Assembly (NCBI GenBank): GCA_964545065.1
Contig: CAZJEO010000002.1
Span: 68,879-132,878, forward strand
DNA: 64,000 bases
Reading direction: 5' to 3'
DNA from: Candidatus Woesearchaeota archaeon
GTDB taxonomy: Archaea; Nanobdellota; Nanobdellia; Pacearchaeales; GW2011-AR1
Shown here: piece by piece, positions 750 to 31,228 of the stretch
How the letters are laid out: every line of letters begins with the position of its first letter
Numbering within the stretch: position 1 is the stretch's first letter
Notes under the pieces: model-generated
Databases searched by the model: none
Seen by the model: the letters and a program-made list of their open reading frames with translations, nothing else
What the model was told of the DNA's origin: nothing
Translations under genes and position numbers: made by a program

Positions 750-1808
750 ATGATACCAGAGAAAGTTAAGAAAGTTTTGAAGAAACAACATTATGGACTT
801 GTTGGTCGGCATTCTGCTGTGCAGATTTGTAGATGGACGAAGAAGTCGATGCGAGACGAGGGTGTTTGTTATAAGGAGAAGTTTTATGGGATTAAATCGC
901 ATCAATGTTGCCAGATGACGCCTGCTGTGATGTGGTGTCCGAATAAGTGTTTGCATTGTTGGAGGGCTGTTGAATTGACAATTGGAGATAAGTTGGGGGA
1001 GGGAATTGATTCGCCTAAGGAGATTATTGATGGTTGCATTAAAGCTCAGAGAAAATTGTTGACTGGTTTTAAGAAATCAAAAGAGAAGAGAAATTTTAGC
1101 AGAGCTAATATGGAAAAATGGGAAGAAGCTCAGGAGCCTATGCAGTTTGCTATTTCACTTTCGGGTGAGCCATTTATTTATGATAAGATTGGAGAGTTGA
1201 TTGAAGAGTTGAGGAAAAGAGGCAAGACAAATTTTGTTGTGACTAACGGACTTTATCCTGAAAAAATTAAAGAGTTGGCTGAGAAAAAACAATTGCCAAC
1301 ACAACTTTATATTTCTGTTAATACTCCGAATAAAGAAATGTATGAGAAGTTTCATAGGAGTTCTATGAAAGATGCTTGGGAAAAATTGAATCAGAGTTTG
1401 GAGATAATGTCTGAGTTGACACCACAGGCGTATACCCAAAAAGGGCACGAGAACCTCTCCCAAGGCCCCGATAAATCTTCTGCAAAGATTTCTACTAGGG
1501 GCAAATGTCGTACGATATTCAGAATGAACCTTGTTAAGGGTTTGAATATGGAAAATAAGATGATTAAAGAATATGCTGAGTTGATTAAAAAGGCGAAGCC
1601 TATGTTTGTCGAGGTTAAAGGATTTATGAGTGTGGGATTTGCGCGAGATAGGTTAGGTTATGACAAGATGCCTACAGACAAAGAGATGCTTGAGTTTGTA
1701 AAAAAGTTAGGAAAAGAAACTGGGTTGAAACTTTTGGATAGCCATGAATTTTCAAGAGCATATATTTTGGGAAAGAGTGGAGAGGGGATGAAGATTAAGG
1801 GGAATTAA
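750..1808 (+). CDS. taw1: tRNA 4-demethylwyosine synthase (Taw1/TYW1-type radical SAM)
   Basis: Cys-rich N-terminal segment (CRWTKKS..GVCYKEKFYG..CCQMTP) plus CPNKCLHCWR (CxxxCxxC), typical of TYW1/Taw1. Carries a repeat-element insertion at 1420-1505. Confidence 0.75.
   Translation: MIPEKVKKVLKKQHYGLVGRHSAVQICRWTKKSMRDEGVCYKEKFYGIKSHQCCQMTPAVMWCPNKCLHCWRAVELTIGDKLGEGIDSPKEIIDGCIKAQRKLLTGFKKSKEKRNFSRANMEKWEEAQEPMQFAISLSGEPFIYDKIGELIEELRKRGKTNFVVTNGLYPEKIKELAEKKQLPTQLYISVNTPNKEMYEKFHRSSMKDAWEKLNQSLEIMSELTPQAYTQKGHENLSQGPDKSSAKISTRGKCRTIFRMNLVKGLNMENKMIKEYAELIKKAKPMFVEVKGFMSVGFARDRLGYDKMPTDKEMLEFVKKLGKETGLKLLDSHEFSRAYILGKSGEGMKIKGN
1420..1505 (+). repeat. In-frame palindromic mini-element, long form, diverged copy (inside taw1)
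   Basis: CACCACAGGCGTATACC...GGCCCCGATAAATCTTCTGCAAAGATTTCTACTAGGGGCAAA aligns with the copies at 17558 and 25138. Inner stem AAATCTT/AAGATTT; outer stem GCCCC/GGGGC. Confidence 0.7.
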
Positions 1809-13985: not shown

Positions 13986-14954
13986 ATGCCTACAAGAAAA
14001 AGTCCAAGAAAAGGAAGTTTGCAGTATTGGCCACGGAAAAGGGTCAATAAATTTTTGCCTAGTGTGAACTGGGACGCGATTTCTGAAGGAAAAACAATCA
14101 AGGGATTTATAGCTTACAAAGCTGGAATGGTTTCTGCTTATGTTAAAGATAATACAGAAGATTCAATGACTAAAGGGAAGCACATTGCAATTCCTGCCAC
14201 AATAATTGAATGTCCACCAATGAAGATTTTTTCTGTTAGATTTTACAAAAATGGTTTGGCTGTGAAAGATGTTTTGGCTGAAAATTTAGATAAGGAACTT
14301 AAAAGAAAAGTTAAGCTTCCAAAAGTAAAGAGGAAATTTGAAGAGTTTGTGGCACCCAAGGGTGTACCCTCTAAAGAGGGCAAAGATTATGATAATATTC
14401 ATGTGATTTGTTATTCTGTTGTTAAGAATACTGGGATAAAGAAAACCCCTGATTTGATTGAGCTGGATATTTCTGGAAGCAATGAAGAAAAATTGAATTT
14501 CATTAAAGAAAATATTACTAAAGAAATTTCTGTTTTGGATGTTTTTGAGAAAGACCAACTTGTTGATGCTCGTGGATTGACTACTGGAAGAGGTTTACAA
14601 GGACCTGTTAAAAGATTTGGTATAACTTTGAAAGCAAGCAAATCTGAAAAAGGTAGAAGGCGACCAGGATCTCTTGGTCCGTGGCATCCAGCTCGTGTAA
14701 CATTTAGGGCTCCGCAAGCAGGACAATTAGGAATGTTCACAAGAATTATTTACAATAATAAAATAATTGAAATGGGAAAAAGCGCAGACAAGGAATTAAA
14801 GAACATCAAGAACTTTGGAGATATTAAAACAGATTATGTTATTGTTCAAGGTTCTATTATGGGCCCTTCAAAAAGACAGCTACTTCTTACATCACCATTA
14901 CGAGGAACTAAAAAACAACTCAAGAAAAATTATGAGTTGGTGGATTTAAGATGA
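13986..14954 (+). CDS. rpl3: 50S ribosomal protein L3 (uL3)
   Basis: MPTRKSPRKGSLQYWPRKR start typical of archaeal uL3. First gene of the conserved L3-L4-L23-L2 order. Short repeat insertion at 14352-14385. Confidence 0.95.
   Translation: MPTRKSPRKGSLQYWPRKRVNKFLPSVNWDAISEGKTIKGFIAYKAGMVSAYVKDNTEDSMTKGKHIAIPATIIECPPMKIFSVRFYKNGLAVKDVLAENLDKELKRKVKLPKVKRKFEEFVAPKGVPSKEGKDYDNIHVICYSVVKNTGIKKTPDLIELDISGSNEEKLNFIKENITKEISVLDVFEKDQLVDARGLTTGRGLQGPVKRFGITLKASKSEKGRRRPGSLGPWHPARVTFRAPQAGQLGMFTRIIYNNKIIEMGKSADKELKNIKNFGDIKTDYVIVQGSIMGPSKRQLLLTSPLRGTKKQLKKNYELVDLR
14352..14385 (+). repeat. In-frame palindromic mini-element, short form (inside rpl3; peptide APKGVPSKEGK)
   Basis: GCACCCAAGGGTGTACCCTCTAAAGAGGGCAAAG contains two hairpins, CACCC-AA-GGGTG and CCCTC-TAAA-GAGGG. 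Nearly identical to 19703-19736. Confidence 0.85.
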
Positions 14955-16728: not shown

Positions 16729-16958
16729 TGGAATATGGAAAAATGTCTGATGATGAATTGATGAAAGTATACGAAAGTAGATTGGAAAAAGTAAATGAAA
16801 TTAGAAAAAATCAAGGTTTAGGCGATGAAGAACGATTATCAGTAACAAGGGCATCAAGGAACAACTTAATTATTGAAACATTATCTTTAGATTGCGTAAT
16901 CCTGCGTCACCGAGCAGCAGAATCAATTAAATCATCCGCAGAATCATTAAAATATTAA
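16728..16958 (+). CDS. Small lineage-specific ORF (76 aa) intercalated between rpl2 and rps19
   Basis: TAATG overlap with rpl2, 1-nt spacer to rps19. No homology recognised. Confidence 0.5.
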   Translation: MEYGKMSDDELMKVYESRLEKVNEIRKNQGLGDEERLSVTRASRNNLIIETLSLDCVILRHRAAESIKSSAESLKY

Positions 16959-17362: not shown

Positions 17363-18070
17363 ATGACAGAAAAAGATTATAATCCAGAACAGAAAAATAA
17401 AAAAGTGATGAACACGCAAAAGGTAGTTGGAAAAGTAAATGAATCTCCTGTAAAAAAGGAAACTGCAAAAATTGCGCCAGAGGAAAAGAAAATAGCTTCG
17501 CCTGGAGACGAAGGAGATAAAGAAGTAATTAATAACAAAGACAGCGGCGCTATTAAGACACCCAAGGGTGTACACCAAGGAGGTGCGAGTACCTCTTCGA
17601 GGCCTCGAGAAACTTCTGGAGAAGTTTCTACTAGGGGCAAAAAACAACCTGTAACTTCTAAAGTAAAAAAGAGTGAAGCAATTGTTAATGGAGTTGGTTT
17701 GCCTCTTTCAACAAAAACATCTGTTGCTATTTGTAAATTTATTCGTGGAAAAAGCATTCCAAAAGCAATTGCAAATTTAGAGCAAGTTATTGCTAAGAAA
17801 AAAGCTGTTCCAATGAAAGGCGAAATTCCTCATAGAAAAGGAAAAATTATGTCGGGAAGATTCCCAAAAAATGCTGCAGAATATTTTATTAAATTATTAA
17901 AGAATTTGCAAGCAAATGCAAACGCTAATGGTTTGGACGAGCCAGTTGTTGCTGAAGCTATGGCAAATATTGCGTCTCAACCTTATGGAAGATTTGGAAG
18001 AGTTCGAAGAAAGAGAACTCATGTTTTACTTAAGGCTAAAGACAAGAAAATGAAGGGAGGAAACAAATAA
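17363..18070 (+). CDS. rpl22: 50S ribosomal protein L22 (uL22) with a ~95-aa N-terminal extension
   Basis: ATG 1 nt after the rps19 stop. The conserved uL22 core starts near GLPLSTKTSVAICKFIRGK. The extension contains the long repeat element. Confidence 0.85.
   Translation: MTEKDYNPEQKNKKVMNTQKVVGKVNESPVKKETAKIAPEEKKIASPGDEGDKEVINNKDSGAIKTPKGVHQGGASTSSRPRETSGEVSTRGKKQPVTSKVKKSEAIVNGVGLPLSTKTSVAICKFIRGKSIPKAIANLEQVIAKKKAVPMKGEIPHRKGKIMSGRFPKNAAEYFIKLLKNLQANANANGLDEPVVAEAMANIASQPYGRFGRVRRKRTHVLLKAKDKKMKGGNK
17558..17641 (+). repeat. In-frame palindromic mini-element, long form (rpl22 N-terminal extension; TPKGVHQGGASTSSRPRETSGEVSTRGK)
   Basis: ACACCCAAGGGTGTACACCAAGGAGGTGCGAGTACCTCTTCGAGGCCTCGAGAAACTTCTGGAGAAGTTTCTACTAGGGGCAAA. 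Inner stem AGAAACTTCT/AGAAGTTTCT. Confidence 0.9.
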
Positions 18071-18834
18071 TGGAAGAAAGAAATACAGTTAAATTTAGAA
18101 AAGATGAATTTGCTATCAAGGAATATATTAAAAAGCAACTTGGAAAAGGTAAGGTTAGCAAAGTTAGGATTGAATACACTCCTATTGGGGAGAAGATAAT
18201 TGTTTCAACAAGCAAGCCTGGTTTGGTTATTGGGAGAAAAGGAGAGAGAATTGAAGAGTTGACAATTATTTTGAAAAAGAAGTTCAAGCTTGAGAATCCG
18301 ATAGTTGAGATTGATGAGATTTTAAACCCAGAGTTTGATGCTCAGATTATTGCTGATGAGATTGCGCTTGGGTTAGAGAGGAGTGGGCCGTTGAAGTTTA
18401 AAGTTATTGCTTATCGGACATTGCAGAAAATAATGGGTGCAGGAGCTCTTGGAGCTGAGATAGTTATTGGGGGAAAATTGCCAGGAGCAAGGGCAAAATC
18501 CTGGAGGTTTGCTCAAGGATATTTAAAGAAAACAGGAGATAGTGCAAAGATTGTTGACAGAGCGAAATCAACTGCGCAAACAAAACCAGGAACTGTTGGA
18601 ATTAAAGTTAGTATACTTTCACCAGATGCTGTCTTTAAGGATAAAATAAAGATTGATGATGAAGTTATTGCAAAATTAAAGAATGCTGCAGAGGAAGTTG
18701 CGCCCAAGGGTGTACCCCGAGATATTTCTAAAGAAATATCTACCGAGGGCAAAGAGCAACAGAAAAAGAAAATAGTAAAAACTAAACTGGTATCTAAAGG
18801 TGTACCTTCTAAGGAAGGCAAGGCGGCGAAATAA
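18070..18834 (+). CDS. rps3: 30S ribosomal protein S3 (uS3)
   Basis: KH domain (LVIGRKGERIEEL) and conserved position. The C-terminal tail holds two repeat copies. Confidence 0.95.
   Translation: MEERNTVKFRKDEFAIKEYIKKQLGKGKVSKVRIEYTPIGEKIIVSTSKPGLVIGRKGERIEELTIILKKKFKLENPIVEIDEILNPEFDAQIIADEIALGLERSGPLKFKVIAYRTLQKIMGAGALGAEIVIGGKLPGARAKSWRFAQGYLKKTGDSAKIVDRAKSTAQTKPGTVGIKVSILSPDAVFKDKIKIDDEVIAKLKNAAEEVAPKGVPRDISKEISTEGKEQQKKKIVKTKLVSKGVPSKEGKAAK
18700..18754 (+). repeat. In-frame palindromic mini-element, medium form (rps3 tail; APKGVPRDISKEISTEGK)
   Basis: GCGCCCAAGGGTGTACCCCGAGATATTTCTAAAGAAATATCTACCGAGGGCAAAG. Inner stem GATATTTCT/AGAAATATC. Confidence 0.85.
18793..18823 (+). repeat. 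In-frame palindromic mini-element, short form, diverged (rps3 tail; SKGVPSKEGK)
   Basis: TCTAAAGGTGTACCTTCTAAGGAAGGCAAGG. The stem is CCTTC/GAAGG instead of CCCTC/GAGGG, a paired compensatory change. Confidence 0.65.
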
Positions 18835-18835
18835 A

Positions 18836-19048
18836 ATGGCAATACTTAAAACAAAAGAAATTAGAAACATGAGCGTTGGAGATAGAGAAAAGAAAATGAA
18901 AGAATTGAAAATGGAATTGGTTAAATCTCGATCTGGAAATTCAAAGACAGGTAACAAAACAAAAGAGATTAAAAGGATTATTGCAAAAATACTTACACTC
19001 AACAAAGCCGAGGAGAAATCACCTCAGGAGGTTGAGAAAAACAAATAA
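18836..19048 (+). CDS. rpl29: 50S ribosomal protein L29 (uL29)
   Basis: MAILKTKEIRNMS..ELKMEL is typical uL29. ATG 1 nt after the rps3 stop. Confidence 0.9.
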   Translation: MAILKTKEIRNMSVGDREKKMKELKMELVKSRSGNSKTGNKTKEIKRIIAKILTLNKAEEKSPQEVEKNK

Positions 19049-19049
19049 C

Positions 19050-19346
19050 ATGGAAATATGTCCGAAATGTGGTTTGCCTGAGCAAGCCTGCGTGTGTGAG
19101 CAGATTGTGAAAAGTTCACAAAGGATAAAGGTAACAACAGACCGTAAAAGATACGGTAAGATCGTCACTGTTGTTTCTGGATTTGGAGAGGGGATAGACG
19201 TGAAGAAGATCGCAAAAGCTCTGAAAAACGAGCTTGCTTGTGGGGGAACCTCCAAGGACAATGTGATCGAGCTTCAAGGCGACCACAGGAAGAAGATGAC
19301 AGGCCTGTTGGTTGAGTTAGGGTTTGAAGAAAACTCCATCGATTGA
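19050..19346 (+). CDS. Translation initiation factor SUI1 (aIF1)
   Basis: N-terminal CPKCGLPEQACVC zinc knuckle and the SUI1 core (GKIVTVVSGF..ELACGGT). G+C visibly higher than neighbouring genes. Confidence 0.85.
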   Translation: MEICPKCGLPEQACVCEQIVKSSQRIKVTTDRKRYGKIVTVVSGFGEGIDVKKIAKALKNELACGGTSKDNVIELQGDHRKKMTGLLVELGFEENSID

Positions 19347-19363
19347 ACACACAAAGAAACAAA

Positions 19364-19756
19364 ATGGAAAAAATAGAAGAAAAGAAACAGATAGAGAAAG
19401 AAACAGCTAAGACAGCTGGAGCTGGATGTGAAGATAAGAATTGTCATGTTCATGGTAGCTTGAAAGTTCGTGGAAAAATCTTTGAAGGAGAAGTTATCAA
19501 GAAATTCCCTAAGAGAGTTGTTATTCAATTTGAAAGAATGATTTATGTTAGAAAATATGAAAGATACAAAAAAAGTAAGACAAAGATTCACGCAAGACTT
19601 CAAGATTGTATGAAGGATGATGTTCAAGTTGGAGATATGATTAGGATTCAAGAATGTCGACCTTTGAGTAAGATTATACATTTTATAGTGCTAGGGAAAA
19701 TCACACCCAAAGGTGTACCCTCTAAAGAGGGCAAAGCCAAGGAGGAAAAGAAATGA
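19364..19756 (+). CDS. rps17: 30S ribosomal protein S17 (uS17)
   Basis: CEDKNCHVHG and RIQECRPLSK motifs. First ATG in the ORF. The tail carries the short repeat. Confidence 0.9.
   Translation: MEKIEEKKQIEKETAKTAGAGCEDKNCHVHGSLKVRGKIFEGEVIKKFPKRVVIQFERMIYVRKYERYKKSKTKIHARLQDCMKDDVQVGDMIRIQECRPLSKIIHFIVLGKITPKGVPSKEGKAKEEKK
19703..19736 (+). repeat. In-frame palindromic mini-element, short form (rps17 tail; TPKGVPSKEGK)
   Basis: ACACCCAAAGGTGTACCCTCTAAAGAGGGCAAAG, near-identical to the rpl3 copy. Confidence 0.85.
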
Positions 19757-20154
19757 AAGCAATAAGTGCAAAGATAACACCAGGAGTGAGTATAGGCTCA
19801 ACATTAATTGCAGCCAGTAATAGTGGAGCAAAGATTGTGCGGTTGGTTGGAGTAAAGAGAGCTAAGGCCAAGAAGGGTCACCATGTTTCAGCGAAAGTGG
19901 CTGACTTGGTTAAAGTTTCTGTAAGAAAAGGTGTGCCAGATATGAAAGGTCATGTGTTTGACGCAATTGTTGTAAGACAGAGAAAATCATACAGAAGACT
20001 TAATGGAGAAAGAATTGCATTTGAAGATAATGCTGTTGCGATTTTGAAAGATGATAAAGGAAATCCCAAGGGAACTCAGATTAAAGGACCTGTTGCAAGG
20101 GAGGTGCAAGAGCGATGGCCGCAAGTTGCGAAGATTGCTAGTGTGGTAGTTTAA
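19753..20154 (+). CDS. rpl14: 50S ribosomal protein L14 (uL14)
   Basis: Typical uL14 sequence. ATGA overlap with rps17. Confidence 0.95.
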   Translation: MKAISAKITPGVSIGSTLIAASNSGAKIVRLVGVKRAKAKKGHHVSAKVADLVKVSVRKGVPDMKGHVFDAIVVRQRKSYRRLNGERIAFEDNAVAILKDDKGNPKGTQIKGPVAREVQERWPQVAKIASVVV

Positions 20155-20155
20155 G

Positions 20156-20401
20156 ATGAAAGATAGAAAGACAGTATTATTAGAAAGGGCAGCAGGAATT
20201 GATTTTCTTGCAAGCGTAATCGGTGCTTTTGTGGGGGGAGAATATTTAGAAAGAGCAAAAAACCTGTATGAAAAAATAACAATAAAATATGAGGAAGAAA
20301 TAGGGGAAAAATGGCCAATTCAGTGGAGATTAAATGAAATAAGAAAACTGGAAGCAGAAGAATTTCCTTACCCAATAGAAACACATTCAACACTTTTATA
20401 A
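20156..20401 (+). CDS. Small lineage-specific ORF (81 aa) intercalated between rpl14 and rpl24
   Basis: 1-nt spacers on both sides. No homology recognised. Confidence 0.5.
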   Translation: MKDRKTVLLERAAGIDFLASVIGAFVGGEYLERAKNLYEKITIKYEEEIGEKWPIQWRLNEIRKLEAEEFPYPIETHSTLL

Positions 20402-20402
20402 A

Positions 20403-20918
20403 ATGAAACAAAAATTTAGTAAAGCATGGAAAGCAAGTTCACAGCCTCGGAAGCAGAGGAAATATGCAGCGAATGCTCCGATACATTTGAAGCGAAAACT
20501 TTTGAGTGTTAATCTTGCGAAAGATTTGAGAACAAGACATAAAAAGAAAAATATTCCTGTGCGAAAAGGAGATACTATTTTAGTTATGCGTGGGAAATTC
20601 AAAGGGAAAAAAGGAAAAGTAAATGAAGTTAAAACAAAAATGGAGAAAATTTATGTTGAAGGTATTCAAGTGAAAAAGCGAGATGGTACAACAGTTAATG
20701 TTCCGTTGAAGGCATCGAATTTGCAGATTATTGAATTGTATATGGAAGATGGGAAAAGAATTAAAAGGATGCAGGAAGAAAAGAAAGAGAGCAAGGGAAA
20801 AAAGAATGCTGAATCTAAAGATTCAGAAGATAAAAAAGATAATAAGAAAGACAGCGGGGTGGTGGATAAAGTGAAAAAGCAAGATAATAAAAAGGAAAAT
20901 GCGGAGGTAAAGAAATAA
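20403..20918 (+). CDS. rpl24: 50S ribosomal protein L24 (uL24) with a K/E-rich C-terminal extension
   Basis: KOW motif VRKGDTILVMRGKFKGKKGKV and conserved position. Confidence 0.9.
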   Translation: MKQKFSKAWKASSQPRKQRKYAANAPIHLKRKLLSVNLAKDLRTRHKKKNIPVRKGDTILVMRGKFKGKKGKVNEVKTKMEKIYVEGIQVKKRDGTTVNVPLKASNLQIIELYMEDGKRIKRMQEEKKESKGKKNAESKDSEDKKDNKKDSGVVDKVKKQDNKKENAEVKK

Positions 20919-21145
20919 TGAAAACAGAAACAAGAAATTTAATTAGAAATTGTAGAAAACTAAAAAAAGTGCATAAAATAGCTAAAAAATGTGTTTCTTT
21001 AAATGATTTGCAATTTTCTTTAAAGATTTTCGAAACAAACTTGGATCGACTTGGAAAAAGAGTACCCGAAGATCCCAGAGCAGGTCGTGCATTTAGGAAA
21101 TATCAAGCATTTTATAATAGAAAATGTGCGGAGGTTTATCGATAA
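20918..21145 (+). CDS. Small lineage-specific ORF (75 aa) intercalated between rpl24 and rps4e
   Basis: TAATG overlaps at both ends. Basic helical protein, no homology recognised. Confidence 0.5.
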   Translation: MKTETRNLIRNCRKLKKVHKIAKKCVSLNDLQFSLKIFETNLDRLGKRVPEDPRAGRAFRKYQAFYNRKCAEVYR

Positions 21146-21789
21146 TGGCATACTTAAAACGACAAAAAGTTCCGAAGAATTGGCCTATTCATAGAAAAGG
21201 CACAACTTATGTAGTTAGGCCTGGTTTTAGTATTGGGAAGGGAATTCCTATTTTGATTATTTTGCGGGATATTTTGAAAGTTGCAGCAAATCGAAGAGAA
21301 GCTAAAAGAATAATTCACGCGAAACAAGTTTTATTGAATAATAAACCTGTAATGGATGACAAGCACAATGTTTTGTTACTTGATTGTATAAGTATTGTTC
21401 CATCAAATAAATTCTATAGAATGAATTTATCAGATAAAGGAAAATTCAAACTTGAAGAAGTTAAAGCTGAGGAAGCAGGAAGAAAAGTTTCTAAGATAGT
21501 AAATAAGAAAACTTTGAAAGGAAAAAAGACTCAATTGAATTTGAGTGATGGGAGAAATTTCTTGTCTGATTTGAAATGTAATGTTAATGATTCTGTTTTG
21601 ATTAATCTTTTAGAAAAGAAATTAGAAAAATGTATCCCATTACAAGAAAAAGCAAAGGTTCTTGTTTTTGAAGGAAAACACGCTGGTGAAAAAGGTGTAA
21701 TCGATAAGCTTAAAGACAAAACAGCAGAGATAAAGATGGAAGATAGAACAGTTGATATTTTAATTAAACAGTTGATGGTGGTTGAATAA
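21145..21789 (+). CDS. rps4e: 30S ribosomal protein S4e (eS4)
   Basis: MAYLKRQKVPKNWPIHRKGTTYVVRP is the typical eS4 N-terminus. Confidence 0.9.
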   Translation: MAYLKRQKVPKNWPIHRKGTTYVVRPGFSIGKGIPILIILRDILKVAANRREAKRIIHAKQVLLNNKPVMDDKHNVLLLDCISIVPSNKFYRMNLSDKGKFKLEEVKAEEAGRKVSKIVNKKTLKGKKTQLNLSDGRNFLSDLKCNVNDSVLINLLEKKLEKCIPLQEKAKVLVFEGKHAGEKGVIDKLKDKTAEIKMEDRTVDILIKQLMVVE

Positions 21790-22102
21790 AATGGATGAAA
21801 CAAAAATAAGAAGGCAATTGGGAGTAGAACAACAACTTGTTGATATGGCAAAGTCAGCAGCTGAAGCTAGTTGTTATCAAGAAACTGCAGAATTATTAGA
21901 TAAGGCGAAAAGGTGTAAGGATGTAGTTTATGGATTGTTGATGGAGGCTGAACCAGATGAAAACGGGCTTGCTAGGATGACATGTGAAGTTCCCTCAAAC
22001 ATGGAAAGGACAAGAAACCATCCTTTTGCTAAGGATACTCAAAGAATCTATTCAGAAGGAGAAAAATATTGTATGCATAAACTTCAAAGGATATGTAATT
22101 AA
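21782..22102 (+). CDS. Small lineage-specific ORF (106 aa, several Cys) intercalated between rps4e and rpl5
   Basis: 8-nt overlap with rps4e, 1-nt spacer to the rpl5 ORF. No homology recognised. Confidence 0.5.
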   Translation: MNKMDETKIRRQLGVEQQLVDMAKSAAEASCYQETAELLDKAKRCKDVVYGLLMEAEPDENGLARMTCEVPSNMERTRNHPFAKDTQRIYSEGEKYCMHKLQRICN

Positions 22103-22103
22103 A

Positions 22104-22769
22104 ATGACAGATAAAGAAGAAGAAACTAAAATGGCAGAAGAAACAGCACCCAAGGGTGTACACCAAGGAGGCGCGAGTACCTCTTCGCCAAGTAGGTCTG
22201 AAAGAAGGCCCCTAGACATTTCTCAAGAAATGTCTACTGAGGGCAAAGAAAAACAAATGGCATCCAAGGAGAATCCAATGCGAGAAATAAAAATCGAGAA
22301 GATTGTTCTTAGCATAGGTGGGATTGGAGAAGACTTGGAAAAGGGTGTTAAGCTTTTGAAACTTATTACTGGAAGAGTTCCTGCTAAAAAAAGATCAAAC
22401 AAAAGAATTCCAACTTTGAATGTTCGACCGAAACTTGAAATTGGAGCAATGGTTACAATCAGGCAAAACATAAAAGAGTTTTTGGAAAAAATGCTTGTTG
22501 CTATTGATAATACTTTGAAGAGAAAACAAATAAGTGAAAATAATTTTTCATTTGGAATCCATGAATATATTGAGATTCCAGGAGTAGAATATCAGAGAGA
22601 ACTTGGAATCATGGGATTTGATGTTACTGTTGTTTTCAAAAGAGCAGGACGAAGAGTTAAGTTGAGAAAAGTGAAGCGAGGAAAAGTTTCAAAGCGACAA
22701 GTTATAAGCAAAGAAGAAATAATTAAATTCATGGAAGAAAATTTTAATACGGAGTTTGTGGGGAAATGA
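22104..22769 (+). CDS. rpl5: 50S ribosomal protein L5 (uL5); alternative start at 22257
   Basis: The conserved uL5 core begins at MASKENPMREIKIEKIVLSIG (ATG 22257). The in-frame upstream 51 codons from ATG 22104 consist mostly of the long repeat element. Confidence 0.85.
   Translation: MTDKEEETKMAEETAPKGVHQGGASTSSPSRSERRPLDISQEMSTEGKEKQMASKENPMREIKIEKIVLSIGGIGEDLEKGVKLLKLITGRVPAKKRSNKRIPTLNVRPKLEIGAMVTIRQNIKEFLEKMLVAIDNTLKRKQISENNFSFGIHEYIEIPGVEYQRELGIMGFDVTVVFKRAGRRVKLRKVKRGKVSKRQVISKEEIIKFMEENFNTEFVGK
22146..22248 (+). repeat. In-frame palindromic mini-element, long form with an extra 18-nt module (5' of the rpl5 core)
   Basis: GCACCCAAGGGTGTACACCAAGGAGGCGCGAGTACCTCTTCG[CCAAGTAGGTCTGAAAGA]AGGCCCCTAGACATTTCTCAAGAAATGTCTACTGAGGGCAAAG. 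Inner stem TAGACATTTCT/AGAAATGTCTA. Confidence 0.9.
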
Positions 22770-23467
22770 TGATGAAGATTGCAGAAAAAATATTTGAGAA
22801 ATATCCTGAATTTGAAGTGGGGGTTATTATAGCGAGAGATTTGGATAATTCAAAATATAATGAAGAAATCCAAGGATTAATAAGGGGAATTGAAAAAGAA
22901 ACTAGGGAAAAAATAGATCCAGAAGAAGTTACTCAGAATCCAACTATTGCTAAGTGGAGAGAAATATATAAATCATTTGGAGCAAAGCCAAGCGATTATA
23001 GAAATTCTGTTGAAGCATTAATTAAAAGGGTCCTTAAAACAGAATTATATAAAATAAATCCTCTTGTGGATTTGTATAATTATATTTCTATAAAATATAT
23101 AATGACTGCTGGCGGAGAAGATATTGACAAAATAGAAGGTGACTTAATATTAGATTTTGCTAATGGAGATGAAGAGTTTATTCCGCTTGGAGAAGAAGAG
23201 AACAAATCTCCTTGGGAAGGAGAAGTTGTGTATAAAGATGATAAGGGCGCTATTTGTAGATGTTGGAATTGGAGAGAGGGCGATAGAACAAAACTTACAG
23301 AAGACACTAAAAATGCTGTGTTAGTTATTGAGAACATAATTCCAGAAGATAATGAAAAGTTAAAAGAAGCTTTAGAAGAACTTAAATCATTAATTGAAAA
23401 ATATTGTGGAGCAAAATGTGAAACTCATATTTTAAATAAAGAAAATTCAGAGGTGGATTTAAAATGA
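22766..23467 (+). CDS. Free-standing B3/B4 (PheRS-beta editing-like, tRNA-binding) domain protein
   Basis: NPLVDLYNYISIKYIMTAGGEDIDKIEG resembles the B3_4 domain signature. ATGA overlaps with rpl5 and rps14. Confidence 0.55.
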   Translation: MMMKIAEKIFEKYPEFEVGVIIARDLDNSKYNEEIQGLIRGIEKETREKIDPEEVTQNPTIAKWREIYKSFGAKPSDYRNSVEALIKRVLKTELYKINPLVDLYNYISIKYIMTAGGEDIDKIEGDLILDFANGDEEFIPLGEEENKSPWEGEVVYKDDKGAICRCWNWREGDRTKLTEDTKNAVLVIENIIPEDNEKLKEALEELKSLIEKYCGAKCETHILNKENSEVDLK

Positions 23468-23694
23468 CTGCAAGTGATTGGAAAAAGGTTTTGAAACAGA
23501 TACGGAACAAACCAGCGAAAGCTGCACGGTTTTTGAAACACAACAAGCCGAAAGAAAGGAAGATTGGAATCGCTGTGAATAAATGCGAGAGGTGTGGAAG
23601 ATTTGGCGCTCACATAAAATCATACGGATTAAATTTATGCCGACACTGTTTTCGAGAAATCGCGACAGAAATAGGTTTTCAAAAATATAGTTAA
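23464..23694 (+). CDS. rps14: 30S ribosomal protein S14 (uS14, zinc form)
   Basis: CERCGR...CRHCFRE zinc-ribbon motif and conserved position. Confidence 0.9.
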   Translation: MTASDWKKVLKQIRNKPAKAARFLKHNKPKERKIGIAVNKCERCGRFGAHIKSYGLNLCRHCFREIATEIGFQKYS

Positions 23695-23695
23695 A

Positions 23696-24076
23696 ATGAG
23701 TCAAGATATAGTCGCTGATGCGTTGAACATGTTACGAAATGCAAAGAAAGCTAGAAAGGATGTTGTTGAAATTAAGAAAATTTCAGATTTATTAATCGAG
23801 ATTTTAAAAATAATGAAACAGAAAGGCGCGATAAAGAAATACAAGATTGATGCTAAGAATAGAAGCATTGAAGTTACAATTGGAGACTTGTCAGAATGTA
23901 AAGCGATTAAGCCAAGGTTTACTGTTAAGAAAGAAGATGTTGAAAAGTACGTGAGACGATATTTGCCTGCGAGAAATTTGGGAACAATGGTTGTTTCTAC
24001 TAACAAAGGTTTGATGACTCACACAGAAGCTCAAGAAGAAAAAACGGGGGGATGCTTGATTGCATTTTTTTATTAA
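23696..24076 (+). CDS. rps8: 30S ribosomal protein S8 (uS8)
   Basis: DIVADALNMLRNA start, GGCLIAFFY end and conserved position. Confidence 0.95.
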   Translation: MSQDIVADALNMLRNAKKARKDVVEIKKISDLLIEILKIMKQKGAIKKYKIDAKNRSIEVTIGDLSECKAIKPRFTVKKEDVEKYVRRYLPARNLGTMVVSTNKGLMTHTEAQEEKTGGCLIAFFY

Positions 24077-24077
24077 A

Positions 24078-24152
24078 ATGAAAAAAGTAAATCAACCAAG
24101 TAGGTCTGAAGGAAGATTTTCATGTTTTCCTTTTTGGAGGAACCGAAAATGA
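24078..24152 (+). CDS. Leader uORF upstream of rpl6 (MKKVNQPSRSEGRFSCFPFWRNRK)
   Basis: ATG 1 nt after the rps8 stop. AAAATGAAAAAAG is duplicated at 24075-24087 and 24146-24158. Its stop overlaps the rpl6 ATG (ATGA), and GGAGG lies 8 nt before rpl6. Contains the GTAAATCAA..AGATTTTCA core plus the 18-nt module. Confidence 0.45.
   Translation: MKKVNQPSRSEGRFSCFPFWRNRK
24096..24115 (+). repeat. 18-nt module CCAAGTAGGTCTGAAGGA(AG), second copy (inside the rpl6 leader uORF)
   Basis: Matches 22188-22208 (CCAAGTAGGTCTGAAAGAAGG) with one mismatch. It is absent from the otherwise homologous leaders at 3101 and 15745. Confidence 0.7.
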
Positions 24153-24691
24153 AAAAAGAAATATTTCAAACAATAGAAATTCCTGAGGGAGTTGAAGCGA
24201 ATTTAGAAAAAGATATTCTTACTGTGAAGGGACCTGAAGGAGAGAATAAGAGAGAATTTGATATTACGAATCTTTCACTTGAGAAAAAAGATAATCAAAT
24301 AATTGTTGGGAATGCTAAGGCGACAAAAAAAGAAAAGAAAAGAATTGGAACTCTTGCTGCACATATTAAGAATATGATTAAAGGTGTTCAGGAAAAGTTT
24401 GAATACAAGTTGAAAATTTGTTTTAGCCATTTCCCTATGACTGCTGAGATGCAAGGAAAGGAAGTTATAATCAAGAATTTCTTAGGAGAAAAAATTCCTA
24501 GAAAGGTTGCGATTCGAGATGGCGCTGAAGTTAAGATAGAGAAAGATATTATTACTGTTACTTCTGTGGATAAAGAAATCGCTGGACAAGTTGCGGCTAA
24601 TTTTGAAACAGCTACAAAGGTTCCTTTGAAAGATAGAAGAGTTTTCCAAGATGGAATTTATATTACAAATAAAGCAGGGAGGGAAATGTAA
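24149..24691 (+). CDS. rpl6: 50S ribosomal protein L6 (uL6)
   Basis: MKKEIFQTIEIPEGV is the typical uL6 start. SD-like GGAGG upstream. The longer track ORF from 24122 is less likely. Confidence 0.9.
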   Translation: MKKEIFQTIEIPEGVEANLEKDILTVKGPEGENKREFDITNLSLEKKDNQIIVGNAKATKKEKKRIGTLAAHIKNMIKGVQEKFEYKLKICFSHFPMTAEMQGKEVIIKNFLGEKIPRKVAIRDGAEVKIEKDIITVTSVDKEIAGQVAANFETATKVPLKDRRVFQDGIYITNKAGREM

Positions 24692-25227
24692 TGGCTCCAA
24701 CATTTTTAAGACGAACAAGTTTTAGGTATTCAAAACTTGGAAAGGGTAGAAAGAAAAAACAAGTTTGGAGAAGACCGACTGGAAGAGATAATAAAATGCG
24801 GGAAAGAAGGAAAGGATATCCTGCTGTGGTTAGTGTTGGATACAAGACAAATAAAAAAGAACACAAAAATATTGTGAATGTTGAAAATTTAAAGGATTTG
24901 GCAAAAGTACAAAAAGGAGATGTTGTTGTTTTTGGAAATATTGGAAAAAAGAAAAAAATAGAACTTGCAAAAAAGGCAAAAGAAATGAAAATTGAAATCA
25001 GTAATTTAAATATTGAAAAGTTTTTAAAAAAGATTAAAGAGAAGGAAGAGAAGAAAGTTGAAGTTGAGACAAAAGGAAAAAAGATAGTTAAGAAAACTGG
25101 AGTGAAGAAGAAAGAAGAAACTAAATCAGATGGAGTCGCACCCAAGGGTGTACACCAAGAAGGTGCGAGTACCTCTTCGAGGCCCCGAAACATTTCCAAG
25201 GAAATGTCTACTGGGGGCAAAAAATGA
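24691..25227 (+). CDS. rpl32e: 50S ribosomal protein L32e (eL32) with a C-terminal extension
   Basis: FLRRTSFRYSKLG..WRRPTGRDNKMR is the eL32 core. The tail ends with the long repeat element. Confidence 0.9.
   Translation: MAPTFLRRTSFRYSKLGKGRKKKQVWRRPTGRDNKMRERRKGYPAVVSVGYKTNKKEHKNIVNVENLKDLAKVQKGDVVVFGNIGKKKKIELAKKAKEMKIEISNLNIEKFLKKIKEKEEKKVEVETKGKKIVKKTGVKKKEETKSDGVAPKGVHQEGASTSSRPRNISKEMSTGGKK
25138..25221 (+). repeat. In-frame palindromic mini-element, long form (rpl32e C-terminus, abutting the rpl19e start)
   Basis: GCACCCAAGGGTGTACACCAAGAAGGTGCGAGTACCTCTTCGAGGCCCCGAAACATTTCCAAGGAAATGTCTACTGGGGGCAAA. Inner stem ACATTTCC/GGAAATGT. Confidence 0.9.
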
Positions 25228-25631
25228 ATTTAGCAAAAAAGAAAAACTTAGCAGCAAGAACATTAGGAGTTGGAAGAAAGAGAATTGTTTTCTTAGCTCC
25301 GCGAATGGATGAAATCAAAGAAGCCATTACTAAACAAGATATTCGAGATTTGAAAGAAGAAGGAGCAATAATTATCAAAGATGTTAAAGGGAAGAAAAAA
25401 GTTGAGAAGAGAAACAGACGAAGAAGTACTGGGAAGATTCGAAAGAAAGTTAATATTCGAAAAAAGCAATATGTTATTATGACTAAAAAATTGAGAACTT
25501 ATGTTGTTGGTTTGGTTGAAGCAGGAAAAATAACTAAAGAAGATTCTGTGGATATGAGAAAGAAAATAAAGAATAAATTTTTCAGAAGTAAAGCTCACAT
25601 GAAAGAATATGTTGGAGGATTGGAGAAATGA
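25224..25631 (+). CDS. rpl19e: 50S ribosomal protein L19e (eL19)
   Basis: MNLAKKKNLAARTLGVGRKRI is the typical eL19 start. Confidence 0.95.
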   Translation: MNLAKKKNLAARTLGVGRKRIVFLAPRMDEIKEAITKQDIRDLKEEGAIIIKDVKGKKKVEKRNRRRSTGKIRKKVNIRKKQYVIMTKKLRTYVVGLVEAGKITKEDSVDMRKKIKNKFFRSKAHMKEYVGGLEK

Positions 25632-26137
25632 CAGTAAAAAAAATGCCGAAACGAAGAAGACGAGAAAATAAAACAGATTATGGTAAGAGACTTAAGTTGC
25701 TGAAGGCAGGAGTTCCGAGAATTGTTTTTAGAAAAAGTAACAAATATATTATTGCACAATATGTGACAAGCAAAGAAGCTCAAGACAAGATTGAATTCGG
25801 AGTGATTTCAAAAGATTTGGTGAACTTTGGTTGGCCAAAAGAAAACCAAGGAAGTTTGAAATCAATTCCTGCTGCGTATTTGATTGGATTGTTAATGGGT
25901 AAAAAAATTACAGAGAAAGGATTAGAAAACCCAATAATTGATTTTGGGATGAACAGAATGTTATATAAAACTAAAACTTATGCTTTCTTGAAGGGAGTTG
26001 TTGACGCTGGAATTCAAATTAATGCCAAAGATGAAATTTTCCCAGAACAAGATAGAATTCAAGGAAAACATATGAAAAAAGATTTTTCAAGTATGTTCGA
26101 ACAAATTAAATCAAATATTGATAAAAATGGAAAGTAA
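25628..26137 (+). CDS. rpl18: 50S ribosomal protein L18 (uL18)
   Basis: RRRRENKTDYGKRLKLL motif and conserved position. Confidence 0.95.
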   Translation: MTVKKMPKRRRRENKTDYGKRLKLLKAGVPRIVFRKSNKYIIAQYVTSKEAQDKIEFGVISKDLVNFGWPKENQGSLKSIPAAYLIGLLMGKKITEKGLENPIIDFGMNRMLYKTKTYAFLKGVVDAGIQINAKDEIFPEQDRIQGKHMKKDFSSMFEQIKSNIDKNGK

Positions 26138-27005
26138 AATTACAGAAAAAGCTAAACAAATAGATGCTGGAAATAGAAGAGCCTTTGGTGGTTCTCCAGA
26201 AGATAGAAAGAAAAGATTTCAGCAAAGAATTGAAGAAGAAGAAAGAGAAAGATTAGCTAGTTGGAAACCAAAAACAAAACTTGGAAGAGAAGTAAGAGAA
26301 GGGAAGATAAAAAATATTGATGAAATTCTTGATTCAGGAAGAAAAATTATGGAATCTGAAATTGTTGATTTGGTTGCAAATGTTAAATCTGATTTAATTT
26401 TCGTTGGACAATCAAAAGGAAAGTTCGGTGGTGGAAAGAGAAGAGTTTGGAGACAAACGCAGAGAAAAACTCGTGAAGGAAATGTTCCTACTTTTTCAAC
26501 AATGGCTGTTATAGGAGATGGGAATGGGCATATTGGAATTGGCGATGGGAAGTCTAAGGAAACTTTGCCTGCAAGAGATAAAGCAACAAAGAAAGCTAAG
26601 TTGAATATTTTTAGAATTACAAGAGCTTGTGCTGGTTTTGATTGTGCTTGTTCTGAATTACATTCTGTTCCATTCAAAGTTACTGGAAAATCTGGAAGTG
26701 TTAGAGTTACATTAATCCCTGCACCACAAGGAACTGGATTGGTTGTGGCAAATGAATTAAAGAAAATTTTGAAACTTGCTGGAATCAAAGATGTTTATAG
26801 TAGAACTTCGGGTAAACAGCGAACATCTTTTAACTTGATTAAGGCTTGTATTGAAGCTTTAAAGAAAACAAATGGTGATAAGCAAGTTGTTGCAAAACAA
26901 GTGATTAAAAAAGTTGAAAAGAAAGAAGAAGTTGTAGAAAAGAAACCTGTGAAAACTGACGAAAAGAAAACAGAATCAAAAGAAGTTAAGGAGGTTGGGA
27001 AATGA
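26127..27005 (+). CDS. rps5: 30S ribosomal protein S5 (uS5) with a K/E-rich C-terminal extension
   Basis: uS5 core (GDGNGHIGIGDGKSKE) and first ATG in the ORF. Confidence 0.9.
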   Translation: MESKITEKAKQIDAGNRRAFGGSPEDRKKRFQQRIEEEERERLASWKPKTKLGREVREGKIKNIDEILDSGRKIMESEIVDLVANVKSDLIFVGQSKGKFGGGKRRVWRQTQRKTREGNVPTFSTMAVIGDGNGHIGIGDGKSKETLPARDKATKKAKLNIFRITRACAGFDCACSELHSVPFKVTGKSGSVRVTLIPAPQGTGLVVANELKKILKLAGIKDVYSRTSGKQRTSFNLIKACIEALKKTNGDKQVVAKQVIKKVEKKEEVVEKKPVKTDEKKTESKEVKEVGK

Positions 27006-27229
27006 ATTTAGTTGAAACTGCAGTTGTAGCTTTGGAAAAGGTTGTTAATGTGTATTGTGATGATAAGTCCCGAAAAGGGATGGATGAAGTTAGAGATTAC
27101 TATGCTACTTATGAGAAAGTTCTTTCAAGTGAAGGAGAGGGTTTGCCAGAAGAAACTATTCTGGAACTTGAAGGGCGAGCTAAAACTGCTTATAAAACAT
27201 TTTGGGAGAATAAAACACCATGCTGGTAG
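27002..27229 (+). CDS. Small lineage-specific ORF (75 aa) intercalated between rps5 and rpl30
   Basis: ATGA overlap with rps5 and a 10-nt overlap with rpl30. No homology recognised. Confidence 0.5.
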   Translation: MNLVETAVVALEKVVNVYCDDKSRKGMDEVRDYYATYEKVLSSEGEGLPEETILELEGRAKTAYKTFWENKTPCW

Positions 27230-27567
27230 TAATTAGAATACGAGGACAAGTTGGATTGGATGAACACATAGTAAATACTTTGTACAGATTAAGACTTAGA
27301 AAAAAATACACTTGTATTGTTTTGGAAAATCCTGGTAAGGAACAACTTGGAATGATAGAGAAGGTAAAGAATTTTGTGGCTTATGGTGAAATAGATGAAG
27401 CTACTTACAAAAAACTTGTTGAAGCACGAGCAGGGAAAATAAAGAATTTCTTTAGATTGCATCCTCCGAGAAAAGGAATTGATAGTAAGAAACATTTTGG
27501 AGTTGCTAAAGGTGTTTTAGGAAATCATGGTAAGGAAATAAATAAATTAGTGGAGAGAATGTTATGA
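27220..27567 (+). CDS. rpl30: 50S ribosomal protein L30 (uL30)
   Basis: MLVVIRIRGQVG start and conserved position. Confidence 0.9.
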   Translation: MLVVIRIRGQVGLDEHIVNTLYRLRLRKKYTCIVLENPGKEQLGMIEKVKNFVAYGEIDEATYKKLVEARAGKIKNFFRLHPPRKGIDSKKHFGVAKGVLGNHGKEINKLVERML

Positions 27568-28118
27568 TAACTAAAAAACGAACAAAAGCATCTCGACAAC
27601 ATGGAAGAAACATGGGAACACACGGAGGCGGAGCTAGGAAAAAGCGAAAAGGTTCAGGGCATAGAGGAGGAAAAGGAATGTCTGGAAGTGGAAAGCGAGC
27701 AGACCAGAAGAAAACTCTTGTGATAAAACTTTATGGTCATGAGTATTTCGGTAAGCAGGGAATCACAAGCAGGGGAACAAAAAGAGATACAAGACAAAGA
27801 ATTAATCTTCAACAAATTGAAAATAATTTAGAGAAATATGGACACCAAGGGCGTACCCCGAAAGATTTTGATAAAAAATCTTTACAAGGGGCAAAGCAAG
27901 GAAAAGATGGTTGGGAAATTGAATTAGGAAAATATAAAATTCTTGGAAATGGCGAAGTTAAGAATAAATTAATTATTACAGCTATGGAAGCTTCTGCATC
28001 TGCGGTTGAGAAAGTGAAGAAAGCTGGCGGGGAGATAATTGTTAATGCTCACCGCTCGGTGTACCCCAAATTGCAGAATAAAGGGGCAAAAAAAGAGGAA
28101 AACATTGAAGAAAAATGA
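27564..28118 (+). CDS. rpl15: 50S ribosomal protein L15 (uL15)
   Basis: G/R/K-rich N-terminus (GGGARKKRKGSGHRGGKG) and conserved position. Holds two repeat copies. Confidence 0.9.
   Translation: MITKKRTKASRQHGRNMGTHGGGARKKRKGSGHRGGKGMSGSGKRADQKKTLVIKLYGHEYFGKQGITSRGTKRDTRQRINLQQIENNLEKYGHQGRTPKDFDKKSLQGAKQGKDGWEIELGKYKILGNGEVKNKLIITAMEASASAVEKVKKAGGEIIVNAHRSVYPKLQNKGAKKEENIEEK
27842..27896 (+). repeat. Palindromic mini-element, medium form, read in a different frame (inside rpl15; HQGRTPKDFDKKSLQGAK)
   Basis: ACACCAAGGGCGTACCCCGAAAGATTTTGATAAAAAATCTTTACAAGGGGCAAAG. Inner stem AAAGATTTT/AAAATCTTT; outer stem CCCC/GGGG. Confidence 0.75.
28050..28090 (+). repeat. Palindromic mini-element, short/diverged form, third reading frame at the 5' arm (rpl15 C-terminal region)
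   Basis: CACCGCTCGGTGTACCCCAAATTGCAGAATAAAGGGGCAAA retains the GGTGTACCCC and GGGGCAAA arms. Confidence 0.55.
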
Positions 28119-30727: not shown

Positions 30728-31228
30728 ATGGAAAACGAACAACAAGAAATGATGTTTAAGATGCAAATGTTTGATCAACAGATTAAGCAGTTGCAACAAC
30801 AATTACAAGCAATTGATCAAGGGATTTCAGAAATGACTGCTTTGAACGAAGGACTTAGTGAACTAGTTGGGAAAGAAGGGAAAGAAATTTACGCTCCAAT
30901 TGGTAGGGGCATATTTGCAAAAGCTAAACTTATTTCAGAAGATTTGAATGTTGATGTTGGTGGAGGAAACATGGTTAAGAAAACTATTCCTGAAACTAAA
31001 AAGATAATTGAAGACCAACTTAAGAAACTTGATGAAGTTAAGAAAGAGCTTGAAACTGGTATGGAAAAAATGGGCGAAGAATTTAAGGTCCTGATTGAAG
31101 ATGCTCAGGCTAAAGAAGCTGGGAATATTGGAAAGAAAGAGGAAGGGAAAGAAAAGAAACCAACAAAGACATCAAACATTTCCCAAGAAATGTCTACTAA
31201 AGGCAAGAAAATTGATGAGTTGGTTTAA
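30728..31228 (+). CDS. pfdA: Prefoldin alpha subunit
   Basis: Coiled coil, beta-hairpin region (IYAPIGRGIFAKAKL..VDVGGGNMV), coiled coil. The tail carries a partial repeat. Confidence 0.7.
   Translation: MENEQQEMMFKMQMFDQQIKQLQQQLQAIDQGISEMTALNEGLSELVGKEGKEIYAPIGRGIFAKAKLISEDLNVDVGGGNMVKKTIPETKKIIEDQLKKLDEVKKELETGMEKMGEEFKVLIEDAQAKEAGNIGKKEEGKEKKPTKTSNISQEMSTKGKKIDELV
31174..31207 (+). repeat. Palindromic mini-element, 3' half only (prefoldin tail; NISQEMSTKGK)
   Basis: AAACATTTCCCAAGAAATGTCTACTAAAGGCAAG. Stem ACATTTC/GAAATGT followed by CTACTA-AGGCAAG, as in the long copies. Confidence 0.6.

Follow-up and report, generated by a model that had tools for sequence, protein, structure and literature searches.

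The 64,000-nucleotide stretch of a Candidatus Woesearchaeota archaeon studied here (contig CAZJEO010000002.1, positions 68,879 to 132,878; referred to as the window) has a G+C content of 33% and carries on its + strand an archaeal-type ribosomal-protein cluster running from uL3 (13986) to SecY (29554). Hairpins whose inner stems differ in sequence and remain paired had been pointed out in it by an earlier note, and these proved to be the 3′ module of a modular dispersed repeat of 30–100 nt. Ten copies and one weaker candidate were detected in the window by a covariance model (CM) with filters off, all on the + strand and all within open reading frames (ORFs), namely those of Taw1, uL3, uL22, uS3 (two copies), uS17, uL5, eL32, uL15 (two copies) and a prefoldin (Table 1). 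Nine of the 11 fall within the ribosomal-protein cluster, which occupies 22% of the window. A repeat finder sorted the window copies into families D1–D7; the motif CCCAAGGGTGTAC occurs seven times in the window at two or fewer mismatches versus 0.31 expected, and the long-form core GGTGCGAGTACCTCTTC three times versus 0.03 expected, in both cases on the + strand only.

The repeat exists in a short form of ~30 nt with the hairpin CCCTC/GAGGG, a medium form of ~52 nt, and a long form of 82–100 nt with three hairpin modules. A pair of deoxyhypusine synthases with 92% identity shows how the two larger forms are related: a 30-nt block placed between GGGTGTA and CCCCGA turns the medium form into the long one. 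Single-sequence folds give a 5′ hairpin, CACC-CAAG-GGTG, and an optional middle hairpin of ~30 nt that is confined to the long forms and resembles the short-form unit. The 3′ hairpin combines a CCCC/GGGG outer stem with an AT-rich inner stem of 7–10 bp and has an asymmetric internal loop, with GA on the 5′ side and YTAC-NR on the 3′ side; nearly every copy, also among those not picked by the search pattern, has YTAC 3′ of the inner stem. These folds were preferred over RNAalifold for defining the structure, and the pairings GGGT/ACCC and CCC/GGG that RNAalifold derived from a mixed alignment were set aside, as they would close a 2-nt loop in medium forms. The predicted folds are more stable than those of shuffled sequences (z of −2 to −3.9). 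The element begins with CACCCAAGG and ends with GGGGCAA, and these ends are not inverted repeats of each other.

All nine arm pairs listed in the earlier note were recovered at their positions, the two arms of each being exact reverse complements, including the two short-form pairs CCCTC/GAGGG (14367/14376) and CCTTC/GAAGG (18805/18814); the retention of the outer (G)CCCC/GGGG(C) stem and of the 3′ CTAC was borne out as well. Further copies were collected by exact gapped patterns, which yielded seven loci in three GTDB genomes and 35 JGI metagenome contigs, and by nhmmer plus the CM, which added copies in the flanks independently of the search pattern, giving 68 CM matches (58 distinct) in the window and 42 related loci (labelled L with a number). 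Among 50 copies (41 distinct), 93.1% of the pair cells were paired, and the 41 distinct copies held 36 double-change cells versus 8.4 ± 2.2 in shuffled controls (0/500) and 1–7 in slid controls. For all 68 matches the paired fraction was 92.6%, and the 58 distinct copies gave 63 double-change cells, located in nine of 13 pairs, versus 15.2 ± 3.0 (0/500) and 2–8 in the respective controls. Double changes stayed above both controls as copies were added, and the covariation proposed earlier held. At one inner-stem pair, CG was counted 29, AU 14, UA 6, GC 4 and UG 1 times with none unpaired, and a perfect Watson–Crick inner stem of at least 7 bp was found in 86% of 56 distinct copies versus 9.6% of chimeras joining left and right arms of different copies. 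Compensated variants extend to the outer stem (CCTC/GAGG in L091 and L082) and to the 5′ palindrome (CACCG/CGGTG at window 28050, CGCAC/GTGCG in L094). Since many copies share subfamilies and the cells are not independent, the independent covariation events number about a dozen rather than 63; about a dozen distinct stem haplotypes and 31 distinct right arms were distinguished, and one stem subfamily, GAAACTTC/GAAGTTTC, recurs in at least six unrelated genes. The statement that the inner stems always pair is valid within the window and not universally, as copies elsewhere showed G.T wobbles (L080 and L083), two mismatches (L091 and L093), a bulge (L058:6586) or decay (L062:4860). Mismatches of the types A.C and C.A are no less common than G.U.

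Taking all loci together, the element resides in ~35 unrelated host families, at least 25 of them outside the window set. The ribosomal proteins among the hosts include uL3, uL22, uS3, uS17, uL5, eL32, uL15, uL24, eS1 (S3Ae) and uS11; further hosts include Taw1, diphthamide synthase, deoxyhypusine synthase, Cbf5, an RNA methyltransferase, a class I aminoacyl-tRNA synthetase, MetRS, ThiI-like and Elp3-like proteins, GatD, GatE, prefoldin, a GT1 glycosyltransferase, a low-molecular-weight (LMW) phosphatase, a P-type ATPase, a HerA-like protein, an Orn/Arg decarboxylase, a giant Laminin_G protein, ATP-grasp, ScpB, RadC and T2SSF. One and the same stem cassette, GAAACTTCTGAAGAAGTTTC, is identical in deoxyhypusine synthase, a ThiI-like gene and an unknown 925-aa protein, and its arms with another loop occur in uL22, in ScpB and beside uL5. 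Three to five copies or variants each are present in certain large proteins of Lys-rich or surface type, namely P0001 (1186 aa), P0006 (699 aa), L096:2453-5227 and L068:5916-9431, and forms of different loop content in P0006 (e.g. APKGVPSVEGDINTEGKK) suggest that more subfamilies exist.

Among the 68 matches, every copy lies in sense orientation within a long ORF, except two intergenic copies in L062. None of the ~58 distinct copies is antisense, which constitutes a real bias, because four of the six consensus frames are open. On the 8-kb contig L058, a copy in the LMW phosphatase (106-157, +) and one in diphthamide synthase (6586-6637, −) occupy opposite DNA strands while each is sense to its own gene, so orientation tracks transcription; a replication-strand bias is disfavoured by these copies, on one contig only. 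About 85% of copies are read in one frame, as ..PKGV[HQGGASTSSRP]R-x-IS-x-EMST-x-GK... (...PKGVPRDISKEMSTRGK). The subfamily found in uL15 and Cbf5 is shifted by one base and reads ...HQGRTPKDFxKKSLxxAK; the subfamily and frame of the uL15 copy at 27842..27897 recur in Cbf5 of L078 and L083. Frames also switch inside the element through 1-nt indels (Taw1, L096, L078 and L063), the mixed frames of Taw1, L096 and L078 giving peptides such as APQAYPETF.... The copies are stop-free and their lengths differ by multiples of three, and with their sense orientation and predominant frame this demonstrates that the reading frame matters, a feature overlooked in the earlier note. The exception is L062:414-465 on the minus strand, an intact medium copy in an intergenic spacer, co-oriented with the flanking genes, with a stop codon directly before it, a TGA inside and stops in the usual frame; the element can therefore exist untranslated.

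The composition of the element is foreign to its hosts, with a G+C content of 49% versus 33%, and with CCC making up 71% versus 8% of Pro codons, GGC 41% versus 7% and GTA 89% versus 15%. These foreign codons, the multi-frame copies and the intact intergenic copy identify nucleic acid as the conserved unit. This is further supported by the covarying positions, which couple the third positions of a D/E codon and an M/I/V codon, a linkage predicted by no peptide constraint; pairing is a property of the nucleic acid and not of the peptide. Of the earlier proposal that selection acts on nucleic-acid structure rather than on the peptide, the nucleic-acid constraint thus stands, whereas a functional structure at each locus is not established, given copy turnover and apparent cassette replacement.

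Rapid turnover was evident when orthologous sites were compared. The Taw1 copy inserts 28 aa cleanly, query residues 225-252 falling between the consecutive residues 236/237 of the P. horikoshii Taw1 structure 2yx0, and in deoxyhypusine synthase and uL15 the element lies within variable segments. The uS17 tail is empty in L067 and holds a short form in the window and a medium form in L074; the uL24 tail has none in the window, a medium form in L067 and a short plus a medium form in L082; the uL22 N-terminal extension carries a long form in the window and exists without the element in the L067 ortholog; and the uL5 site bears a medium form in L082 and a long form in the window. At the RNA methyltransferase site the element is present in L084, absent from L078 and L083, and degenerate in L091, and the three Cbf5 sites differ in occupancy, some being filled in only one of three orthologs. 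The uS3 tail has a medium form at the 18701 site in both the window and L074, whose stems differ by compensated changes (L074 stem GACATTTC/AAAATGTC), and L067 uS3 retains a decayed short form at this site and a decayed long-like copy at the 18791 site. The site states differ in length by 21, 30 and 33 nt, all multiples of three. In the 92%-identical deoxyhypusine synthases, the hairpin cassette, loop included, differs by two fully compensated pairs, and the 150-nt flanks are 4–11% diverged; judging from the sequences, this looks like replacement by another subfamily, through conversion or re-insertion, and not like stepwise compensation. The identity of the 3′ hairpin was 82% where that of the flanks was 89–96%, and 85–100% where that of the flanks was 55–66%; hence, element divergence is uncoupled from that of flanks and hosts.

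The element has a narrow distribution. It was present in three of 185,579 GTDB species representatives and in 35 JGI contigs, and a profile of the window peptides searched against 1.84 billion protein-cluster representatives retrieved only seven true hosts, some with 2–4 copies. All repeat-bearing genomes are metagenome-assembled genomes (MAGs) labelled Candidatus Woesearchaeota or Nanoarchaeota (DPANN). The SecY of the window is identical to that on a 107-kb metagenome scaffold, ENA ERZ23499938; this scaffold (L001) stops at window position ~22206, indicating that the window belongs to a longer, separate assembly of the same organism. The specific gapped pattern had no match in viral contigs, and 55 single matches there to a looser 14-base pattern were judged to be chance; these scans thus give no indication that a virus or plasmid serves as vector. 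Searching a protein word index for the concatenated element peptides gave no match, no Rfam 15 family overlapped the element at E ≤ 5, tRNA-Ser being the only family to reach its gathering score in the window, and literature searches found no published description of the repeat in DPANN or other archaea.

Besides the copies, Table 1 lists five small ORFs of 75–106 aa without an assigned family that lie between the canonical members of the ribosomal-protein cluster; L067 has a counterpart of the 106-aa one in its orthologous cluster, with 74% conservation, and no Pfam match is recorded for the 75-aa one. Two other genes with unusual features are included as well.

Table 1. Copies of the hairpin repeat and other features of the window
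Feature	Position	Strand	Location	Characteristics
Diverged long form	1420..1507	+	Taw1/TYW1-like radical-SAM gene (ORF 750-1808)	Inner stem AAATCTT/AAGATTT; outer stem GCCCC/GGGGC; mixed-frame translation (..TPQAYTQKGHENLSQGPDKSSAKISTRGK..)
Short form CACCCAAGGGTGTACCCTCTAAAGAGGGCAAAG	14353..14385	+	uL3 (ORF 13986-14954)	Hairpin CCCTC/GAGGG; peptide APKGVPSKEGK; CM E=2.6e-6
Long form, three hairpin modules	17559..17643	+	uL22 N-terminal extension (ORF end 18070)	Inner stem AGAAACTTCT/AGAAGTTTCT
Medium form	18701..18755	+	uS3 C-terminal tail (ORF 18070-18834)	Inner stem GATATTTCT/AGAAATATC; fold z=−3.9; CM E=5e-17
Degenerate short form	18791..18823	+	Extreme end of uS3	Hairpin CCTTC/GAAGG; peptide SKGVPSKEGK; CM E=0.13
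Short form	19704..19736	+	uS17 C-terminal tail (ORF 19343-19756)	
Long form with extra 18-nt insert	22147..22249	+	uL5 N-terminal extension (probable start 22104, end 22769)	Inner stem TAGACATTTCT/AGAAATGTCTA
Long form	25139..25223	+	Makes up the eL32 C-terminus (ORF 24691-25227)	Inner stem ACATTTCC/GGAAATGT
Subfamily-B medium form	27842..27897	+	Within uL15 (ORF 27564-28118)	Inner stem AAAGATTTT/AAAATCTTT; read in another frame (HQGRTPKDFDKKSLQGAK); CM E=6e-13
Probable extra copy	28050..28092	+	Near uL15 C-terminus	5′ palindrome CACCG-CT-CGGTG; GTACCCC ... GGGGCAAA; no inner hairpin; alternative frame (HRSVYPKLQNKGAK); weak CM match (E=0.36), motifs seen directly
Copy without 5′ motif	31161..31209	+	Prefoldin subunit C-terminus (ORF 30728-31228)	Inner stem ACATTTC/GAAATGT retained; CM E=1.3e-5
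Small ORF without family	16728-16958		Ribosomal-protein cluster	
Small ORF without family	20156-20401		Ribosomal-protein cluster	
Small ORF without family	20918-21145		Ribosomal-protein cluster	
Small ORF without family	21782-22102		Ribosomal-protein cluster	
Small ORF without family	27002-27229		Ribosomal-protein cluster	
B3_4-domain gene (PF03483)	22766-23467		Ribosomal-protein operon, between uL5 and uS14	Domain family known from phenylalanyl-tRNA synthetase beta subunits
Ribosomal stalk protein P0 homolog	3762-4937			Very long acidic Glu/Lys/Ser-rich C-terminal extension, ~140 aa

We consider, with moderate confidence, that the repeat is a non-autonomous palindromic insertion element resembling the Rickettsia palindromic element (RPE), which is tolerated in coding sequence and whose hairpins are the feature recognised for propagation. 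In its favour are the sense-oriented placement in unrelated hosts, the differing occupancy and form of orthologous sites, length steps in multiples of three, the foreign composition, stem cassettes shared by unrelated genes, decayed copies, the narrow distribution and the covariation of the stems. Such an element would have spread across a narrow range of Woesearchaeota-type DPANN genomes and would be translated as 10–33 extra hydrophilic residues at protein termini or in variable regions, and it could persist within protein genes because it is stop-free and has a length that is a multiple of three. The propagation machinery, acting by copying, conversion or transposition, would recognise the hairpins, probably on single-stranded DNA (ssDNA) or on the transcript; only pairing-competent variants would then spread, producing about a dozen stem subfamilies, every one able to pair, and old copies would slowly decay.

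Several observations weigh against this insertion-element interpretation. Terminal inverted repeats are missing, the folds being local hairpins without pairing between the 5′ and 3′ termini, and neither a target-site duplication nor a consistent target could be made out in the filled versus empty pairs (uS17, uL24, methyltransferase and deoxyhypusine synthase), where the flanks are too diverged or of low complexity. Compared with solved uL3, the uL3 copy brings no net gain in length. The inner hairpin is intact despite decayed flanking motifs at window 31161-31209 and 1420-1507, and its outlasting of those motifs hints at maintenance in place. A tblastn search of ~300 kb of these genomes with IS608 TnpA and E. 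coli RAYT, a weak test, found no Y1/HUH transposase. In addition, random insertion plus tolerance is insufficient for copies that are sense only and ~85% in one frame, for which a transcription-strand-specific mechanism or strong selection is needed.

The closest parallel, the RPE (Ogata et al. 2000 Science 290:347; PMC2229807, PMC10969869), measures 105–146 bp and has terminal inverted repeats of ~12 bp that form one long 5′–3′ stem; it is bacterial, frequent between genes and also found in RNA genes (PMC2229807, PMC10969869). Both are small palindromic repeats of reduced AT-rich genomes, lie in frame in many unrelated conserved housekeeping genes where they add a peptide, have no known mechanism of mobility, and leave orthologs with and without the insert side by side. 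The present units differ in being 30–100 nt long, in having two or three local hairpins instead of a single terminally closed stem-loop of RPE size, and in residing in archaea, almost exclusively within genes and strictly in sense orientation, with switching among short, medium and long forms at one site. As the hosts are archaeal MAGs, common descent with the RPE is very unlikely. Yeast mitochondrial DNA is reported to contain optional G+C-rich palindromic clusters, including in-frame clusters in var1. They likewise are GC-rich hairpins in an AT-rich genome, optional among strains and in frame in a ribosomal-protein gene, whereas they are organellar, mostly intergenic and of other sequence; their conversion-like spread, which does not involve a classical transposase, was shown genetically.

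REP/REPIN-RAYT systems (HUH Y1) and the IS200/IS605-derived PATEs share a structure-conserved, sequence-variable hairpin beside a conserved tetranucleotide, and the present element likewise carries on its bottom strand GTAG or GTAA (GTAR) next to its hairpin, a resemblance only, and like them has no terminal inverted repeats; no consistent target duplication was made out in it. Its strand specificity is as expected of ssDNA transposition. REPs, however, are extragenic, bacterial and usually arranged as inverted doublets; the present copies are intragenic and single, no inverted doublet being seen, their orientation follows transcription and not obviously replication, and the weak tblastn search found no RAYT homolog. 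The element also does not conform to the MITE class (miniature inverted-repeat transposable elements), as it lacks terminal inverted repeats. Small dispersed repeats (SDR) of cyanobacteria are very short hairpin-forming repeats that can nest and occasionally give in-frame fusions in conserved coding sequence. The intragenic ERIC/Correia MITEs (PMC2229807) are alike in these respects, and both groups differ from the present element in being mostly intergenic, in both orientations and bacterial. PARCELs are also coding DNA with dyad symmetry dispersed within genomes, but they are 25-residue domains repeated in tandem within ORFs of surface or unknown type and selected as protein repeats, not single insertions in housekeeping genes.

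It is conceivable, though rather unlikely, that the element is the same and its pairing purely mutational, arising by quasipalindrome template switching during replication or by gene conversion among dispersed copies, which would carry a change across to the opposite arm or exchange entire cassettes and so keep stems perfect with no fitness effect of pairing. Quasipalindrome template-switch mutagenesis is established in bacteria, and whole-cassette differences including the loop at one site of 92%-identical hosts, the same cassette in many unrelated genes, the rare yet present mismatch and wobble intermediates (L080, L083, L091/L093) and the stem region outpacing its flanks in the closest pair all agree with such an origin. 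It leaves unexplained the covariation of the outer GC stem and 5′ palindrome (L091, L082, window 28050 and L094) and the conservation of the unpaired YTAC and CGA positions, and no direct evidence of conversion tracts was obtained.

A cis-acting structure with a function in the mRNA or transcribed single strand, such as a factor-binding or processing site or a stability or pausing signal, kept at each locus by purifying selection with the peptide as a passenger, appears unlikely as well. It would suit the strictly sense orientation, which includes the opposite-strand L058 copies and the intergenic copy co-oriented with its operon, the enrichment in the ribosomal-protein cluster, the persistence of the inner hairpin where other parts decayed, the stability of the folds relative to shuffles, and the several orthologous copies whose 3′ hairpins exceed the flanks in conservation. 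Strong covariation alongside copy turnover nevertheless argues against a fixed functional RNA: gain or loss between close relatives was observed at most sites examined, and for the two most closely related hosts divergence was faster in the hairpin than in its flanks. Moreover, the hosts have no common function, Rfam offered no family even at a permissive threshold, and a sense-strand RNA signature is missing, given that A.C/C.A mismatches are no rarer than G.U.

That a peptide module (PKGV...STxGK), for instance a linker or an interaction tag, is selected and the DNA palindrome incidental is highly improbable; the prevalence of one frame, the hydrophilic Lys/Ser-rich peptide and the location at termini or in variable regions would fit, but the reading is rejected and largely refuted by the multi-frame copies, in which the same DNA yields unrelated peptides, and further contradicted by synonymous codons that are frozen and atypical for the host, by the intact intergenic copy, and by covarying codon positions that alter amino acids (D/E with M/I/V). 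Least credible of all is removal of the element from the mRNA, as an archaeal bulge-helix-bulge (BHB) intron or similar, so that it is absent from the protein: archaea splice BHB introns, DPANN archaea are rich in unusual tRNA introns and a stable hairpin bearing an internal loop is present, yet excision requires neither the stop-free state nor the multiples of three, and the asymmetric 2/5-nt internal loop, without two 3-nt bulges on opposite strands separated by a 4-bp helix, led to the rejection of BHB intron and K-turn readings on loop geometry.

A more far-reaching proposal, which we regard as doubtful and give a low but appreciable probability, is that DPANN archaea possess a structure-specific machinery, a candidate being an ssDNA (HUH/Y1-like) or transcript-templated one, that recognises the YTAC-flanked hairpin, targets no strand other than the coding one in transcribed genes, and continually writes, swaps and erases peptide-coding cassettes in essential genes. 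If this were true, the essential genes affected would include those of at least ten ribosomal proteins, and the machinery would amount to a mobile hairpin system that is specific to the transcription strand, inserts in nested modules and has no described archaeal counterpart.

Returning to the insertion element as such, its sense orientation, its modular nesting and its empty, short, medium and long states would make it an unusually tractable natural system for studying how hairpin elements propagate and for testing whether stem covariation needs selection at all, and it serves as a caution for covariation-based RNA discovery. In organisms that are among those with the smallest cellular genomes, a process at the nucleic-acid level would be remodelling both the ribosomal proteins and the enzymes of translation in DPANN archaea, and this is relevant to annotation, to phylogenies that use ribosomal-protein indels as characters, and to the structures of DPANN ribosomes.

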